The notes beneath the pieces are model-generated. The model saw only the letters and a list, made by a program, of their open reading frames with translations. It was not told where the DNA came from and ran no database searches. DNA of 20,000 nt from an uncultured virus (IMG/VR IMGVR_UViG_3300027631_002940) (lineage: Duplodnaviria > Heunggongvirae > Uroviricota > Caudoviricetes), in IMG/VR virus record IMGVR_UViG_3300027631_002940; one strand, 5' to 3'. The translations under genes and the position numbers were made by a program. Of this stretch, positions 678-16,919 are shown piece by piece. Position 1 is the stretch's first letter. The number at the start of each line of letters is the position of its first letter.

Positions 678-2042
678 TTATCTTCTTTGTGCTTCTGGTT
701 TATTGAAGATTTCACTAGCAACAGCTGCTAATTCAGATCTTTCTACCTTAGACAGAGTAATAGAAGCAACTAAATGACTATGTCTACCACCAGAGATAGC
801 ATGAGCAAGTCCGTTTGATTTAGAATCCAAATATGGGTTTTCTACCTGTGATAAATCGCCTAAAAGAATAACTTTAGAGTCTTTACCGCATCTTTCGACA
901 ACCATTCTAGCTTCTTTTGGAGATAAGTTTTCAGCTTCATCTAATAGAATAATGCTTCTTGGTATACTTCTACCTTGAATAAATGCCATTGCTTCTACTT
1001 CGATGATTCCTTCTCTAACCATCTCTTCAAACATATTATTTGCTGATAATGATTTTGATCCTAAGATCTGATCAATATTATCTCTAATTGGTCCTAACCA
1101 TGCAGATACTTTTTCAAACTTATCTCCAGGAAGAGCACCAATATCTTTACCACCTACTGGGATTAAAGGCTTCATAACAACAATCTTGTCATATGTGCCT
1201 TCGTTGATTTGCTGTAATGATGAAGCTACGGCTAAAAAGCTTTTACCAGTACCAGCTTTACCAGAAATAGTTACTAGAGGTACAGTTTTGTCATAAAGTG
1301 CTTCTAATGCACATTTTTGTTCAAGATTCTTACCCTGAACATTTTGATATGCTTTAACTGTGGAATTTGATTTATCTTTTAATGTTCGTAATAAACCATT
1401 TTTATTATATGTTGGGCATTTAGCTTCTCCATATTCAAAAATGAGAAATTCATTAGGATAATATGTTCCAATGTTATTTCTTAATTCTTCTGATAGATTA
1501 GTGATAGGTGTGTCGTCATCACTCCATAACATTTTCCAATCAGTTTCAGAAGTACAAGAAATATATTTTAACCCATTATAATCTTTTTCATCTAATTGAT
1601 CTGATTTATAATTTTCAGAAAAACAGTTCCAAGAAATAGCACGTATTCTTAAACCTGTATCTTTAGTTACAACACATACTTTTTTTCTAGGATTAGCTGC
1701 TTTCAGAGCCAAGCAGCATTCAATTATAGCGTTATCCGAATGAACTTTTACAATGTTAGGTCTTTCGTTTTTTTGTAAAGGAGACTCTGTATTGTAAACA
1801 AACAATCTACCATTTTGTTCATTGATTTTGACACCCTTCATTAAGTCTTGGAGGGTGAAAGCTTCCAAATGTCTGAAAACTTCTCTTGCACTCCAACCAA
1901 TGATGTCACGCTTGGTTTTCATGTCATCTAAATCATCAATAACAGCAAGAGGTAAATAGATATCATTATCTGCGAATTTATACAATGAATAAGGATCATG
2001 TAAAAGAACACAGGTATCGATTATATATATGTGTTTTGCCAA
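678..2042 (-). CDS. phoH: PIN-PhoH fusion (PhoH2/YlaK-type): N-terminal PIN nuclease domain plus C-terminal PhoH ATPase
   Basis: PIN motifs YIIDTCVLLHDP, AVIDDLD, DNAII, VTKDTGLRIRA. PhoH motifs GKAGTGKS, IGALPGD, FIQGRS, ILLDEAENL, LGDLSQ, ERSELA. Start revised from 2060 to TTG at 2042 because a perfect AGGAGG (2050-2055) lies 7 nt upstream of it. Confidence 0.93.
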   Translation of the reverse strand: MAKHIYIIDTCVLLHDPYSLYKFADNDIYLPLAVIDDLDDMKTKRDIIGWSAREVFRHLEAFTLQDLMKGVKINEQNGRLFVYNTESPLQKNERPNIVKVHSDNAIIECCLALKAANPRKKVCVVTKDTGLRIRAISWNCFSENYKSDQLDEKDYNGLKYISCTSETDWKMLWSDDDTPITNLSEELRNNIGTYYPNEFLIFEYGEAKCPTYNKNGLLRTLKDKSNSTVKAYQNVQGKNLEQKCALEALYDKTVPLVTISGKAGTGKSFLAVASSLQQINEGTYDKIVVMKPLIPVGGKDIGALPGDKFEKVSAWLGPIRDNIDQILGSKSLSANNMFEEMVREGIIEVEAMAFIQGRSIPRSIILLDEAENLSPKEARMVVERCGKDSKVILLGDLSQVENPYLDSKSNGLAHAISGGRHSHLVASITLSKVERSELAAVASEIFNKPEAQRR

Positions 2043-2063
2043 TTTGTTTCCTCCTGGCAATCT

Positions 2064-5226: not shown

Positions 5227-7119
5227 ATGGAACAAAATATGCTCATCAAGTTCTTTTCATCTAAAGAATTTAAAAACATCGGCGAAGCAAAAGCACAAAA
5301 AATCATAGATGCATTTGGTGAAAATAGTATAGATGTTCTGATGGCAAATCCAAAAGCTATCTATGAAATGTCTGATTTAGCTGACACAGATAAATCCACT
5401 GTCTACAATTATTTTACCAATAAAGATAAAAATACAATCAATAATCTTATCAAATTGGGTTTATCATTTACATTCGCCCAAAAGGTAATGATGTATTTTG
5501 GCGTTAACTGCACAAATGATATTAAAGATAACCCATTTTGTATGCTTGAAATTAACGGCATAGGCTTCAAGAAATGTGATCAAATATATCTAGCTAATCA
5601 TCAAGATATATATAGTCAACTTCGTTTCACCGCTGCTGTAACCCATATATTACAAGAATCGACTAATATTGGACACTGTTATTTGGCGAGTAATGAACTT
5701 TATAATGAAATAAATAATTTATTAATCAACAAACAAAAATATCCAGCACAACAATATAAGCAATATTTGATTGACCTTAATAAAAATCATTCAATCATTA
5801 TTCAAAACGATAATATATATCTTCCATATTTGTATTATGCTGAAAGATCATCAGCTAAATTACTTACAGATTTGGATACATATGAATATGATTTTAACAA
5901 AGTAGCAGAACATTGCACTGAATATAATTTTAAGTCATTGTCTGATGAACAAAACTATGCTATCAATAGTGTTTTGAAGAATAATGTTACTATCATTACT
6001 GGTGGACCTGGAGTAGGTAAAACACACGTAGTAAAAGGTATTGTTCAAGCTTTGAAATACTTTAATGTTAATTATGCGCTTTGTTCTCCCACTGGTAAAG
6101 CAGCCGATAGATTGTCTAAATCTTCTGATGAGTCTGCTTCAACTATCCACAGATTACTAAAAGCTAATCATACTGGTGGTTTTGATAAGAATGAATATGA
6201 ATTGCTGGAACATGAAGTTATTATTGTTGATGAAGCTTCGATGTTAGATATCAATCTATTTAATTCTTTATTAAAGGCTATGAATACATCTACTAAGCTT
6301 GTTTTAGTAGGCGATATCAATCAGTTGCCTTCAGTAGGACCGGGTAATCTACTAAATGATCTTATTAGCTCACAATTGTTCCCTGTTTGTAGATTGACCA
6401 AAATTTTCCGTCAAACATCTACAAATACAATTATCAATACAGCTCACAAGATTTTAAAAGGTGAAGATCCTGACTTGATTCAAGCTTCCGAGGGGTCAAA
6501 TTGCTTCTTTTATCAAACTAATGAAGAAAATCTTGTTAATAGAATAACTAAGCTATATCGCAAGCTTATGGATAATAAATATACACCTCAGCAAATTCAA
6601 ATAATGACCCCCAAAAAAATTGGACCTTTAGGCAGTGTAGAACTTAATAAAATGCTACAAAATGAACTAAATCCTAAAATCAAAGGTGTAGATGAATTCG
6701 CTAATGATTACAAAACATTCCGAACAGGTGATAAAGTAATTCAAAATAAAAATAATAAAACCAAGAATGTATTCAATGGAGAAACAGGCATTATTGTCAA
6801 TATTTCTAGCTCAATTAGAGTTGATTATAATGGAAAGATCATTGAATATGTTCCTGCTGAATTAGTAGAATTAGATTTGGCTTATGTAATTACCGTTCAT
6901 AAATCTCAAGGCAGCGAATACGAAGTTGTAGTATTCTTGCAATATAATCAATATTTTCCATTACTTCAAAGAAAACTTCTATATACTGCTGTCACAAGAA
7001 GTAAATCATATTGTTTTATCTTAGGCGATTATAACAGCATGATCAAGTCTATAGAAAATTTATCTGAAAGTAAAAGAAATACCAGCTTGATAACAAGATT
7101 AAAGGAATCAACAGTATAA
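5227..7119 (+). CDS. recD2: RecD2-type SF1B ATP-dependent 5'-3' DNA helicase
   Basis: HhH motifs (NIGEAKAQKI, INGIGFKKCD), Walker A GGPGVGKT, IVDEASM, LVGDINQLPSVG, LTKIFRQ, GDKVIQ..N, VFNGETG, LAYVITVHKSQGSEY, LLYTAVTR. Confidence 0.95.
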   Translation: MEQNMLIKFFSSKEFKNIGEAKAQKIIDAFGENSIDVLMANPKAIYEMSDLADTDKSTVYNYFTNKDKNTINNLIKLGLSFTFAQKVMMYFGVNCTNDIKDNPFCMLEINGIGFKKCDQIYLANHQDIYSQLRFTAAVTHILQESTNIGHCYLASNELYNEINNLLINKQKYPAQQYKQYLIDLNKNHSIIIQNDNIYLPYLYYAERSSAKLLTDLDTYEYDFNKVAEHCTEYNFKSLSDEQNYAINSVLKNNVTIITGGPGVGKTHVVKGIVQALKYFNVNYALCSPTGKAADRLSKSSDESASTIHRLLKANHTGGFDKNEYELLEHEVIIVDEASMLDINLFNSLLKAMNTSTKLVLVGDINQLPSVGPGNLLNDLISSQLFPVCRLTKIFRQTSTNTIINTAHKILKGEDPDLIQASEGSNCFFYQTNEENLVNRITKLYRKLMDNKYTPQQIQIMTPKKIGPLGSVELNKMLQNELNPKIKGVDEFANDYKTFRTGDKVIQNKNNKTKNVFNGETGIIVNISSSIRVDYNGKIIEYVPAELVELDLAYVITVHKSQGSEYEVVVFLQYNQYFPLLQRKLLYTAVTRSKSYCFILGDYNSMIKSIENLSESKRNTSLITRLKESTV

Positions 7120-8125: not shown

Positions 8126-9502
8126 ATGTCTGATATCATTAAAAGCAATACTCAGCGGTGTGCTTTCTGTACTAAGAAAGCTACTGAAAAAATTACAGAC
8201 CATTTGAATTTATTTTCAAAAGATAATGCTCTTTATTTATGTGAAGCTCATTTTAACAGTTTTCAAGTTGGAACTGTTTTTGGGCAGATGGAAATAAATG
8301 CTAAAATTATTTCTATTTTATCTAATATAGACGATGATCTCACTGGAGAGACATTGAAAAATAGAGTATATACATTAGTACCTTTGGGAAAAACACAAGT
8401 TGATTCATCGCCTCAATCAAGGCCTGTTTCATTTTCTGAATTTAGCCCAAAATATTTCTATGAGTCTTTGAATAAAAAAGTAATTGGTCAAGAAGATGCT
8501 AAAAAGAGAGTATCTTTGGCTGTATATGAGCATGTAAAATCATCATTTGACAAAAATGAATCTAATGATAGGCACAATATACTTCTTCTTGGCGCATCGG
8601 GAAGTGGCAAAACTTTCATCATCAATAATGTTGCCAAAGACTTAAATGTTCCTTTTGTCGTAGGTGATGCTACTTCATATTCTCCCACAGGTTTTCAAGG
8701 TTCAGATGCGGATTCATGTATACACGATCTTTGGACATCAGTAGAAGGCGATATAGAATCAGCTGAACGTGGAGTAGTTTTTATTGATGAAATTGATAAA
8801 CTAGCTACATATAATCACACTGGATCAAGATCTGAATCTTTTAATCAGTCTACACAGTCTACTATGTTGAAGCTTATAGAAGGTAAGCGCATAAAAATAC
8901 CATCATCCGTCACAGGTGATACTGGTAGCCCGCCTCCATATATATCTACTAATAAAATATTATTCTGTTTTGGCGGGGCTTTTAATGGTCTGCATAAAAT
9001 CGTAGCTAAGAAAATGGGGAAAAAAGAAAAAACCATTGGATTACGATCAGACGCAGATTACAATGAAGAATATCAAAAACAATTAGAATCTTATGAAATC
9101 TTAAGATCTGCTTCTCAAGATGTCCTTATAGAAAGCCTTATAGAATATGGATTATCTGCTGAATTTGTAGGTAGAATTCAAAATATTGTTGCATTAGCTC
9201 CTTTAAACAAAGAAGAACTAATGAAATGTTTAGTAGAAATTGAAACATCACCTGTCAATAAACAACAGATTCTTTTTGCCGAGTCTGGTATACATTTGAT
9301 ATTTGAAGAAGATTTTCTAAATCATGTTATTGATAAAGTTGAAAAAATGGGTACAGGTACAAGAGCTCTTAACACATTAGTAAAGAAATCTGTATCTTAT
9401 GCTGCATTTGAACACCTTGGTCATTCAGGTAAGAAACCAAAGAGTATTACCATCATACAGGAATGCTTAGAAAATCCTGAGAAATATCATATAGAGTATT
9501 AA
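8126..9502 (+). CDS. clpX: ClpX-like AAA+ unfoldase (divergent)
   Basis: N-terminal CAFC...LCEAH zinc-binding domain; VIGQEDAKKRVSLAVYEH; Walker A GASGSGKT; AERGVVFIDEIDK; QSTMLKLIEG; ILFCFGGAF; IGL loop; YGLSAEFVGR; GTRAL. Confidence 0.92.
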   Translation: MSDIIKSNTQRCAFCTKKATEKITDHLNLFSKDNALYLCEAHFNSFQVGTVFGQMEINAKIISILSNIDDDLTGETLKNRVYTLVPLGKTQVDSSPQSRPVSFSEFSPKYFYESLNKKVIGQEDAKKRVSLAVYEHVKSSFDKNESNDRHNILLLGASGSGKTFIINNVAKDLNVPFVVGDATSYSPTGFQGSDADSCIHDLWTSVEGDIESAERGVVFIDEIDKLATYNHTGSRSESFNQSTQSTMLKLIEGKRIKIPSSVTGDTGSPPPYISTNKILFCFGGAFNGLHKIVAKKMGKKEKTIGLRSDADYNEEYQKQLESYEILRSASQDVLIESLIEYGLSAEFVGRIQNIVALAPLNKEELMKCLVEIETSPVNKQQILFAESGIHLIFEEDFLNHVIDKVEKMGTGTRALNTLVKKSVSYAAFEHLGHSGKKPKSITIIQECLENPEKYHIEY

Positions 9503-14518: not shown

Positions 14519-14747
14519 ATCCTTAATCAGTTGCTATTGCTCCGAATGCTATGAACAGTATTTTATGAGCAATGATGAAATATTAATACCTAAATCTATG
14601 AGTATTATGGCAAAAGCAAAAAATATCGAAGATCCAAAAACATGGATCGATTGGCTAGAACATATTCAAAATTATTGTCCTGAATGTAGGCTTAAAAAAG
14701 CTCCTGAATCATGTATTAATAATTTATCTAGAATGACTAAGAGATAG
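14511..14747 (+). CDS. Small zinc-ribbon-like protein
   Basis: CSEC...CPEC pairs; start placed at ATG 14511, overlapping the end of the upstream gene. Confidence 0.65.
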   Translation: MSKSLISCYCSECYEQYFMSNDEILIPKSMSIMAKAKNIEDPKTWIDWLEHIQNYCPECRLKKAPESCINNLSRMTKR

Positions 14748-15216
14748 CTTTTTCAACTAAAGATTTGAACATATCTTTTAATATTTTTTCAGAATCACTA
14801 GTAATCTTACCGTCTGAAAATTCTAATCTTCCGCTGTCTAATAAATAAGAGGCTAGTCCTAATCCTGCATCTTCTGCTGTTTCAATTAATTCAGGATTAA
14901 TCGATAATGGTTCAGAAGAATTATCTATAGATTCATTTTGTGCAGTTCTAAATATTCTTGAAAATAAATGATCTATATATCTATCGTCTACAGATGAAGT
15001 TCTAAGATTATCAATATCTGCTTGTGGTATTTTGTTAACGTATGATTGAACAGCTTCTTTATGTTTAGGACATTCCCAGTAAGTAGATCTTAAACCACCT
15101 CTACAGTCTAAACATACAGGTGCGCCACATTCTGGTTTACTACATACACCCATGTAAGCTCTATGTACAGGCTTACCGCATTGTGAACATGTTAAATTAG
15201 GAACGTAATTTTTCAT
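14737..15216 (-). CDS. Zn-finger protein with an acidic C-terminal region
   Basis: CSQC, CSKPEC, CLDC and CPKH give eight potential ligands; internal IFRTAQ motif. Confidence 0.78.
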   Translation of the reverse strand: MKNYVPNLTCSQCGKPVHRAYMGVCSKPECGAPVCLDCRGGLRSTYWECPKHKEAVQSYVNKIPQADIDNLRTSSVDDRYIDHLFSRIFRTAQNESIDNSSEPLSINPELIETAEDAGLGLASYLLDSGRLEFSDGKITSDSEKILKDMFKSLVEKAIS

Positions 15217-15220
15217 TTGC

Positions 15221-15249
15221 TTGACAATTCTACCTTTAAAAGATATATT
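15221..15249 (+). promoter_or_regulatory. Near-consensus sigma70/sigmaA promoter for the transglycosylase gene
   Basis: TTGACA (15221-15226), 17-bp spacer, TATATT (15244-15249). Confidence 0.75.
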
Positions 15250-15254
15250 ATAGA

Positions 15255-15385
15255 TGTATTAAGGGGAAACCTTTAATATAGTAGGGCCTGAGAGGCAGCC
15301 CGAACTTATGCCATTCGTGGAAATCCAATAAAGGATGTCTCATACGTTGGAAAGAGCTAACACTTTCCCAACGCACTCTGGAGGT
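15255..15385 (+). ncRNA. Candidate structured cis-regulatory RNA leader (riboswitch-like)
   Basis: Consecutive stems: 15255-15280 (11 bp, GAAA loop); GGGC/GCCC 15284-15301; a junction closed by TATG/CATA (15307-15344) enclosing CCA-TTCG-TGG and ATCC-N6-GGAT; CGTTGGAAAG/CTTTCCCAACG 15345-15373; then SD GGAGGT at 15380-15385. Confidence 0.55.
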
Positions 15386-15390
15386 ATCAA

Positions 15391-16026
15391 ATGAAATATT
15401 TGGCACTATTTATGAGTATGATTTCTTTCATACAAGTAGGTGTTAAGCATGAAAACTCGAAAGGTGCTTTGGTTGGTGCGGATACTACACAACAAAAATT
15501 AAATCTGCAAGCTTCTGAAATGAGTCCTGATAAGAAAAAAATTATTGGCTTCATTCAGATCATACAACCAAAATATCCTATGGCAAAAGTTAAACAAATA
15601 GCTGATGTCATATTCTTAGCGAGCAAAAGATATAGGATTGATCCTTATGTTATTACTACTACAGCTTATGTAGAAAGTGAATTCGACATGAAATCAAAGC
15701 CCTGTATCGGTATTATGCAAATGCTAGGATCTACAATTAGATCAGAATACAAAGGTACAAAACATGACCCTCGTACAGTACAAGGGAATATCATGTTAGG
15801 AACTGATTATCTGAAGAAAATATTAGATATGCAAAAAAACAAATCTAATAGCCCATCAAGAATATCAGCTGACTGGAGATTCTATCGTCTAATGTGGGGC
15901 AGATATAGTGGGTATGGGAGCGGAAGTTTCTATGTCAAAAGAAACCAGACTGTGCTCCATTCCTTAAAAACCCTTAGCCTAGATAAACTCAAAGCTAAAA
16001 TTAAAAGTAAAGGGCATATCTGGTAA
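15391..16026 (+). CDS. SLT-family lytic transglycosylase with an N-terminal signal peptide/anchor
   Basis: MKYLALFMSMISFIQVG hydrophobic N-terminus; ASKRYRIDP...AYVESEF (catalytic Glu), IGIMQM, DP...NIMLGTDYL, WGRYSG; GGAGGT SD. Confidence 0.88.
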   Translation: MKYLALFMSMISFIQVGVKHENSKGALVGADTTQQKLNLQASEMSPDKKKIIGFIQIIQPKYPMAKVKQIADVIFLASKRYRIDPYVITTTAYVESEFDMKSKPCIGIMQMLGSTIRSEYKGTKHDPRTVQGNIMLGTDYLKKILDMQKNKSNSPSRISADWRFYRLMWGRYSGYGSGSFYVKRNQTVLHSLKTLSLDKLKAKIKSKGHIW

Positions 16027-16027
16027 A

Positions 16028-16063
16028 AAAAATGGGGAAGATAGAAATATCTTCCCCATTTTT
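16028..16063. terminator. Bidirectional intrinsic terminator
   Basis: aaaaatggggaagata-gaaa-tatcttccccattttt: perfect 16-bp inverted repeat with A/T tracts on both sides, between convergent genes. Confidence 0.92.
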
Positions 16064-16082
16064 AGCTTAGAAAGCAGAGAGA

Positions 16083-16919
16083 TTAGTAACCTCTGCGCTG
16101 TCCTGATGGATATCTTGAAGTCTGAGCTGCCAAAGAAATATTTGGTGTAGCATTTCCAGCTGCAAGAATCTGAGTCATGTCGAGAACTAATCTATTAAAT
16201 TCGAAAGTATTCTTTTCGAACTTCTTTTGAAGATTTCTCATAGAAAGAATAGTTTCGTTTGCGACGAGTGATCTTGCATCGTAATCTGTCTCTGCAACAA
16301 GAGCTGCATAAGCAGTGTCGAATGCAGTACAGGCTGCGACGATCTGATCCTTGACCTTAAGGAAATCTTCCCAGGTTTCGGTAGCGAGTGATGTTGCTGC
16401 AACGCCAACGTTAACGTCAGTAGGATACTTAGCAACTGAATTGTATACAGCAACAGCTGGTAACTCTTCAAATCTTACTGCATCAATACCGAGGGTAAAT
16501 CCAGCAAGAATATTTCTAAGAACGAATACTTTCGCTCCGTTGACAGTACCACCATTGACAGCAACAAACTTGAAGTTGCTAGCTGCAAGTAATTTTGCAG
16601 AAGTGTCAAAGCTGGTATTTCTTGACCATGCACCAGATGCTGCGGTATAGATACCATTGTCAAATGCATTTGTCTGATTTTTTACGAGAACAAAGTTACC
16701 AGCTGAAACAGAAACACCATCGATGGTCTGTGCGCCAGTAAGAGCGATGTTTGCTGTAGTAGCAGCATGAATAGTGGCAGGTGTACCTACTGTACCAGCA
16801 GCAGTAAATGCGACACTGACAGCCTGAGTAAATTTAATTTCTCTCTTATCAGCAACGTTATCAACTGCTCTTGCTCCAGGTGCAATTCCACTGATGAAAC
16901 TAGATGGATAGTTTGGCAT
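16083..16919 (-). CDS. Probable abundant virion structural (decoration/fibre-like) protein
   Basis: AATTANIALTGAQTIDGVSVSAGNFVLVKNQT...NGIY..ASGAWSR module; Ala/Thr/Val-rich; helical C-terminus; AGGAG SD 6 nt upstream; own terminator; visibly more GC-rich than its flanks. Confidence 0.8.
   Translation of the reverse strand: MPNYPSSFISGIAPGARAVDNVADKREIKFTQAVSVAFTAAGTVGTPATIHAATTANIALTGAQTIDGVSVSAGNFVLVKNQTNAFDNGIYTAASGAWSRNTSFDTSAKLLAASNFKFVAVNGGTVNGAKVFVLRNILAGFTLGIDAVRFEELPAVAVYNSVAKYPTDVNVGVAATSLATETWEDFLKVKDQIVAACTAFDTAYAALVAETDYDARSLVANETILSMRNLQKKFEKNTFEFNRLVLDMTQILAAGNATPNISLAAQTSRYPSGQRRGY

Follow-up and report, generated by a model that had tools for sequence, protein, structure and literature searches.

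Why does the gene for a secreted phage lytic transglycosylase begin with a long, GC-rich and apparently structured 5' leader, and is that leader a riboswitch? The locus lies in a 20,000-nucleotide stretch of DNA (hereafter the window) that spans positions 8454-28453 of a linear virus record of 165,921 bp, IMGVR_UViG_3300027631_002940. An earlier note on this DNA had singled out positions 15255-15390 as a riboswitch-like leader with fragments of the c-di-AMP (ydaO) class. The record is about 46% complete (CheckV), its GC content is 0.33 (0.32 in the window), and the sequencing runs containing it come from metagenomes labelled lake, freshwater, estuary and marine; 14 DNA runs contain 0.83 or more of its sampled words. 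Because relatives of its genes are found on contigs of up to 358 kb, the source is taken to be an uncultured freshwater jumbo phage; the phage GenBank collection contains no DNA match to the window sequence. Elsewhere in the window a PIN-PhoH fusion (678-2060, minus strand), a RecD2/Dda-like helicase (5227-7119, plus strand) and an AAA+ ATPase (8126-9502, plus strand) are recognizable, and many of the ORFs that neighbour them belong to no family.

The enzyme is a 211-residue protein (15391-16026, plus strand; Pfam SLT, E=2.6e-8) with a hydrophobic, signal-like N-terminal segment and the catalytic motif AYVESEF, the ES of which is invariant in an alignment of 15 proteins (the window's own and 14 relatives). 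Divergent from it is a cysteine-rich ORF of 159 residues (14737-15216, minus strand) without a Pfam or PHROG family. The same neighbour is found upstream of the SLT gene in relatives, where these ORFs end in CAT beside the promoter. A repeat search reveals a perfect 16+16 palindrome between an A-run and a T-run just behind the SLT gene (16028-16063, both strands), which is likely a bidirectional terminator; beyond it comes another minus-strand gene. This arrangement would make SLT a one-gene unit. Within the SLT coding sequence the minus strand has a further terminator-like hairpin with a T-run (15768-15786), in a scan whose count equals the chance expectation.

The divergent genes are separated by 174 nt, against a median gap of 48 nt, which makes this gap the 31st longest of 151 in a crude gene call. 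Its GC content, 0.40, ranks second or third within the 40 longest gaps, and that of the leader is 0.44 as opposed to 0.32 for the window. The leader had been described as unusually long and GC-rich; this holds in part. Several of the GC-rich long gaps are explained by five tRNA genes (Leu-taa, Lys-ttt, Met-cat, Asn-gtt and Arg-tct) that lie outside the window at 138,952-148,686 of the same genome. Rfam adds one further tRNA-like match (L107:15036-15105) and omits the Leu gene at 138,952.

A sigma-70-type host promoter, TTGACA-17-TATATT, occupies 15221-15249 on the plus strand. It matches the consensus at 11 of 12 positions in a promoter scan and is identical in L013, the related locus discussed below. 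Promoter geometry predicts a transcription start near 15256, at the first base of the hairpin P1, so that the promoter and its relation to the run of stems are as first reported. The divergent gene starts 4 nt from the -35 box, and a minus-strand TATAAT (15247-15252) that overlaps the plus-strand -10 box is a possible -10 element of that gene, lacking a good -35. Six other promoters in the genome have a perfect TTGACA. They place the start codon 9-33 nt past the -10 box, giving leaders of approximately 0-26 nt, as against 141 nt from -10 box to ATG here. Most of them are found among small genes and tRNAs, in what looks like an early region. Since the promoter needs no phage factor, SLT is probably transcribed once the host polymerase sees the DNA. 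A promoter scan of the leader found no second sigma-70-like site, and a 7-mer enrichment screen for a late-promoter motif in the genome returned solely an unrelated repeat element. The leader also lacks an intrinsic terminator-like site, and therefore any control would be exerted on translation or stability. A tRNA/tmRNA search of the leader was negative.

The leader is indeed found in RNA. When contigs from three RNA libraries and one DNA run are placed on 14600-16300, RNA contigs from two different studies share a start at 15271, one of them 741 nt long and ending at 16011 (depth 26.6), the second ending at 15627. Most of the leader, from P2 to P5, is therefore joined to the SLT coding sequence in RNA libraries. 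RNA depth on the neighbouring genes is 4-5 upstream and 46 downstream. The RNA contigs, which cannot prove absence, do not cover 15216-15270 (promoter) or 16012-16075 (terminator), cover resuming at 16076, and the DNA run bridges 14600-15294. This pattern fits transcripts, although contigs cannot prove it, and it is only through the uneven depths that DNA carry-over becomes unlikely. The two RNA-free stretches are also consistent with the boundaries of a one-gene unit. As contigs give neither strand nor true 5' end, the common start at 15271 gives only a weak indication of where the 5' end lies. A true start near 15256, with the first nucleotides lost in library making, would agree with it. 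Alternatively, a start or processing site may exist at 15271, 15 nt past the predicted start, in which case P1 would be excluded from the RNA. A further RNA contig (run X16, record 4) covers the start of the divergent cysteine-rich gene (15088-15215) with 4 differences and continues beyond 15215 with 24 nt unlike the window. A related strain thus has another intergenic region.

The leader (15256-15390) is predicted to fold with a minimum free energy of -39.1 kcal/mol (z=-2.43; 3 of 200 shuffles are as good), a stability that is only moderately unusual; the opposite strand folds about equally well (z=-2.1). The 180-nt start region of the SLT gene ties for the 4th to 6th most stable of 217 genes. 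The predicted fold, entirely on the plus strand, opens with P1 (15255-15280), a hairpin of 11 bp with a GAAA loop and pair probabilities of 0.9-1.0. P1 is a near-palindrome in the DNA, with two G.U pairs that become mismatches if read on the other strand, so that plus-strand RNA is favoured. P2 (15284-15301) would be a GGGC/GCCC stem with a 10-nt loop. A three-way junction follows, whose closing helix pairs 15308-15316 with 15380-15387 (pair probabilities 0.74-0.92 without coding sequence). Its arms are P4 (15317-15343, core AUCC/GGAU at 15323-36) and P5 (15345-15373), a hairpin of 10 bp with one bulge and the loop AGCUAACA. The 3' arm of P5, CUUUCCC, is pyrimidine-rich and resembles an anti-Shine-Dalgarno sequence. 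An alternative small hairpin with a UUCG loop can form at 15311-20.

The run of stems, the three-way junction and the 10-bp stem ending 6 nt before the Shine-Dalgarno (SD) sequence had all been described in the earlier note, and each is recovered, the junction in the minimum free energy fold. The GAAA and TTCG tetraloops it listed are likewise present, though their identities are not conserved in natural variants. The complement behind a proposed pseudoknot, TGAGA (15289-93) with TCTCA (15338-42), is present but not beyond chance: 33% of 2000 shuffles hold a 5-nt equivalent. The 7-mer TAACACT in the P5 loop was considered as a signal, being enriched upstream of genes (8 against 1 expected). 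It is taken as a coincidence because the enrichment stems from a 14-copy palindromic repeat in which the 7-mer has a different context. The leader itself has no repeat in its own genome, where just a 14-nt match to the promoter part is found.

The SD sequence, GGAGG (15380-15384, plus strand), lies 6 nt upstream of the ATG, and its predicted unpaired probability is 0.02-0.24 across folds. Its partner varies with the length folded: 15311-16 when the leader is taken alone, and 15406-11 (codons 5-7) when 30 nt of coding sequence are included. The predicted accessibility of the SLT ribosome-binding site ranks 48 of 217 genes and is not extreme.

Comparison with L013 shows the leader to be under strong purifying selection and functional. 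This locus is related to the window by 92% DNA and 96% amino-acid identity, with differences at 320 of 4037 aligned positions. In eight flanking ORFs, 12.7-22.4% of third-codon positions differ (pooled, 17.0%, or 217 of about 1279). At that rate the 136-nt leader should carry 23.1 changes; it carries 4 (binomial P=2.9e-7; P=0.014 against overall divergence). The changes fall at 15266/15267 in the P1 loop, turning GAAA into CUAA, and at 15295/15297 in the P2 loop, while the 122 nt outside these two apical loops show none (P=1.4e-10). Outside the leader the nearest differences are at about 15167 and about 15403, so it does not merely sit in one long identical tract, and another intergenic spacer in the comparison shows 4 differences in 56 nt. 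The unpaired linkers are as invariant as the stems, an indication that the leader is more than a row of passive hairpins. The promoter of the divergent gene could be part of what keeps the first 60-80 nt conserved.

Strain variants follow the same pattern. The core stems are unchanged in L013 and in the strain variants of runs X16 and X17. The strain in these RNA runs has a G>T change at 15317, at the P4 base or helix end, or within the small UUCG loop. In the DNA assembly of run X8 the stretch 15265-15325 splits into two alleles of 61 nt, a sign of polymorphism around the P2 loop. With three or four haplotypes in which the stems never vary, no covariation is available.

The SLT protein has 15 database relatives; a 98%-identical protein, P0001, has a cluster of 51 members. 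Scanning viral contigs with the single protein gave none, and an alignment-based scan gave 9 viral loci and 80 metagenome loci, the latter kept from 124 that were confirmed. Up to 260 nt before the first in-frame ATG were collected from the 79 loci with at least 200 nt of flank, loci with shorter flanks being left out, and these collapse to 56 distinct upstream sequences. The leader is present in two of the 56: L012, which is the window's own record, and L013. The covariance model made from this pair finds nothing else in the phage's own genome and nothing in four related jumbo records (169-358 kb). In 57 related loci it recovers L013 only, apart from noise matches in L080 (12.8 bits) and L004 (10.1 bits). 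A pattern scan with P5 gave no matches, and a 19-mer scan of prokaryote genomes gave one, in a GC-rich MAG, where alignment shows nothing related beyond the 19-mer. The leader is thus single-copy and confined to one phage species or lineage. The earlier note would count a lack of conservation among homologous leaders against its reading, and with 2 of 56 sharing the leader, one of them the window's own record, that is largely what is found; the selection seen against L013 is nonetheless strong. The literature collection searched describes no leader of this kind for a phage lytic transglycosylase or a jumbo phage.

Most relatives have a simpler arrangement. In 42 of the 56 sequences (type A) one hairpin, TTTCAAG-N9-CTTGAAA, folding at -8 to -9 kcal/mol, precedes an unpaired AAGGAG-type SD, and the remaining 12 fall into at least two other designs, with a masked SD in some (L006, L069). 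Type A shares with the window's leader the gene, the divergent neighbour, the position of the promoter, a pre-SD hairpin with a UUUCC-type run and a GGAG-type SD. It differs in that its one hairpin leaves the SD free, in contrast to a fold of -39 kcal/mol and 141 nt from -10 box to ATG here, and the two cannot be aligned. A near-consensus sigma-70 promoter occurs at the equivalent site in 27 of the 56 (25 relatives, L012 and L013); its -10 box is 53-73 nt from the ATG in the relatives versus 141 nt in the window and L013. Within the type A hairpin (L003-L091, some 50 nt before the SLT start), CTGCTTG is invariant and the UUCCU/UCCUU loop is anti-SD-like. Variants of the hairpin give plus-strand G.U pairs (CAGG in L009, TTTTAAG in L064), which hints at a role as RNA rather than DNA. 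In six loci (L043, L049, L060, L069, L073 and L087) the region upstream of SLT has no sigma-70 promoter and carries instead TTAATACGATA(A/T)T, similar to the beginning of promoters used by T7-type single-subunit polymerases. Homologous SLT genes therefore seem to be driven by different promoter classes.

The leader is, then, a real, selected and transcribed structured RNA element, specific to one lineage. What it does is a separate question. Our preferred reading, held with modest confidence, is that it is a cis-acting 5' UTR of about 135 nt whose junction masks the SD and which works like the leader of the T4 lysozyme gene. The unit would run from the host-type promoter through the leader and the secreted SLT transglycosylase to the bidirectional terminator. 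In the RNA, P1 would lie at or near the 5' end, followed by P2 and the three-way junction, and the SD would be buried either by the closing helix of the junction or by a local hairpin with codons 5-7. Timing or dose matters for a secreted enzyme that cuts peptidoglycan, and burying the SD would hold down or time translation of a potentially self-damaging hydrolase. The message may also gain stability, so that the leader probably restrains or stabilises it. Candidates for releasing the mask are a protein, RNA processing, a ribosome on a small upstream ORF, or a ligand.

In T4 gene e, according to PMC3014915, a helix in the long transcripts made early sequesters the ribosome-binding site, and translation comes from late transcripts whose start lies within that helix. 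The T4 soc, 49 and I-TevI leaders are described there as likewise inhibitory. In both cases a cis-acting RNA structure precedes a gene that encodes a phage cell-wall hydrolase and is transcribed with no need of late factors, and the SD is placed, here by prediction, in a helix that takes its 5' strand from further up the leader. The sequences are not similar, however, and in place of a single hairpin the leader here has about 135 nt, five helices and a junction. Nor was an internal second promoter found that would give an unmasked late transcript. For this reason, and because the accessibility of the ribosome-binding site is no outlier, the leader is said to work like that of gene e rather than to belong with it. 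If it does gate translation of the hydrolase, it would represent a second, independently evolved case of early transcription with delayed translation, the strategy of T4 lysozyme, here in an uncultured freshwater jumbo phage and by means of a much more elaborate RNA. For a single-lineage element with no assigned trigger, the general importance is modest.

A related precedent is the 5'-terminal stabiliser hairpin of bacterial mRNAs, such as that of the ompA leader. P1 is comparable in lying at the predicted first transcribed base and in being very stable. Against a pure stabiliser, the RNA contigs begin at 15271, and the invariance of the remaining 110 nt would be left unexplained.

The alternative that survives best, although we consider it unlikely, is a translational operator at which an RNA-binding protein, phage-encoded or a host CsrA/RsmA-like factor, blocks the ribosome-binding site. 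GGA is the motif of CsrA, and the leader has five, one in the SD and one within AAGGAUGU, where 2.4 are expected. This excess is not significant (P=0.06), the GGA of the P1 loop is lost in L013, and no candidate protein was identified. Invariance of the unpaired stretches would suit such an operator, as does the use by T4 of RegA and similar repressors (PMC3014915).

The same invariance of linkers and junction, combined with variable terminal loops, is also the pattern expected of an aptamer, and it raises the question of an orphan ligand-sensing riboswitch. Here the junction (15308-15387) would be the aptamer and a ligand would switch translation through the closing helix that holds the SD. 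The long GC-rich leader in an AT-rich genome, the compactness of the junction and the lack of a terminator, implying translational control, are all in keeping with this. Known riboswitch classes recur widely, however, and this element is single-copy in one species. The covariance model does not find it beyond that species in the phage's own genome, four related jumbo records or 57 related loci, pattern scans yield 5 and 0 matches in viral contigs, all unrelated, and one chance match in genomes, no Rfam class matches, covariation is lacking, and homologous genes manage with a simple hairpin. We therefore regard an orphan riboswitch as improbable. We judge equally improbable a related version of the idea, in which the junction, with its invariant linkers, is the aptamer of a new riboswitch of very narrow distribution, or senses some factor from the phage or its host, and so times translation of the secreted transglycosylase from an early host-polymerase transcript.

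The conserved region might instead act as DNA, as operators or spacer between two divergent promoters, with the RNA hairpins incidental. The closeness of the divergent start to the -35 box, the overlapping -10 boxes, the near-palindromic P1 and the lack of RNA cover over 15216-15270 would all be accounted for. Conservation nevertheless reaches the ATG, 170 nt from the divergent gene, P1 is perfect solely with G.U pairs, that is, as plus-strand RNA, and the intergenic regions of relatives house both promoters in about half the space. Control at the DNA level is accordingly a quite improbable explanation. Coupling to an upstream ORF has still less to commend it. A 19-codon ORF (15335-15394, plus strand, by sequence reading only) spans P5 and the SD, and its TGA overlaps the SLT start as ATGA, so that ribosomes on it could melt P5 and the SD mask and re-initiate. 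But its SD-like AAGGA abuts its own ATG, a poor spacing, its start is inside the P4 stem, variation of a synonymous type is not seen, and the other leader types have no equivalent ORF. We hold this mode of release to be very improbable.

There remains the ydaO proposal from which the question arose. The strings GTAGGGC (15281-87), N10, GCCCGAA (15298-15304) and AGCTAAC (15355-61) are exactly where the earlier note placed them, and it presumed GUAGGGC...GCCCGAA and AGCUAAC to be ydaO strings. A scan of viral contigs for the string pair with a variable gap gave five matches, all unrelated and mostly coding. In Rfam 15 at gathering thresholds the window has no match to ydaO or any other class. 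The ydaO model (RF00379, cut-off 38 bits) has none at E<=10, either in the 301-nt region 15150-15450 or across all 165,921 bp of the record; of 14 control genomes, 2 reach its cut-off. The same Rfam scan detects five tRNAs elsewhere in the genome and thus works on this DNA. With permissive settings on 15150-15450, the only weak match on the leader strand is DUF805b (RF02914; 15.7 bits at 15260-87, cut-off 35.6). Sub-threshold matches to this family number eight in the genome and occur in 14 of 14 control genomes, and the literature collection searched for DUF805b holds nothing relevant. A match to NsiR9 on the opposite strand (15.8 bits against a cut-off of 90) is noise.

A divergent c-di-AMP riboswitch is therefore refuted as regards family membership: the leader resembles ydaO in being long, structured and placed before a cell-wall enzyme gene, a type of gene with which ydaO is linked (PMC5575661), and in a few short strings, but it fails RF00379, is not conserved across homologous leaders, and consists of two hairpins and one three-way junction with no duplicated half and no terminator platform, unlike the pseudo-two-fold symmetric fold with two ligand pockets described in PMC5575661. 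What stands of the variant or new riboswitch first suggested is a structured, transcribed and selected leader; the kinship with ydaO does not. Searching for long GC-rich intergenic regions can evidently flag a real selected RNA element even when the remembered family is wrong.

A repeated structure of the same genome deserves mention. Outside the window, at L108:3847-14116 (about 149.8-160.1 kb of the genome), 14 copies of an element of about 88 nt lie between small genes, mostly 350-800 nt and up to about 2.5 kb apart. Its core is the palindrome CTG-N4-TTAGG(C/T)TTGT-NN-ACAA(G/A)CCTAA-N4-CAG, with variable N4 blocks that appear to be complementary. The core is preceded by a T-run and TTATTTAACA and followed by TAAATAATAAGA. 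The element may be a terminator-plus-promoter cassette of an early region, comparable with the T4-type PeSL elements.
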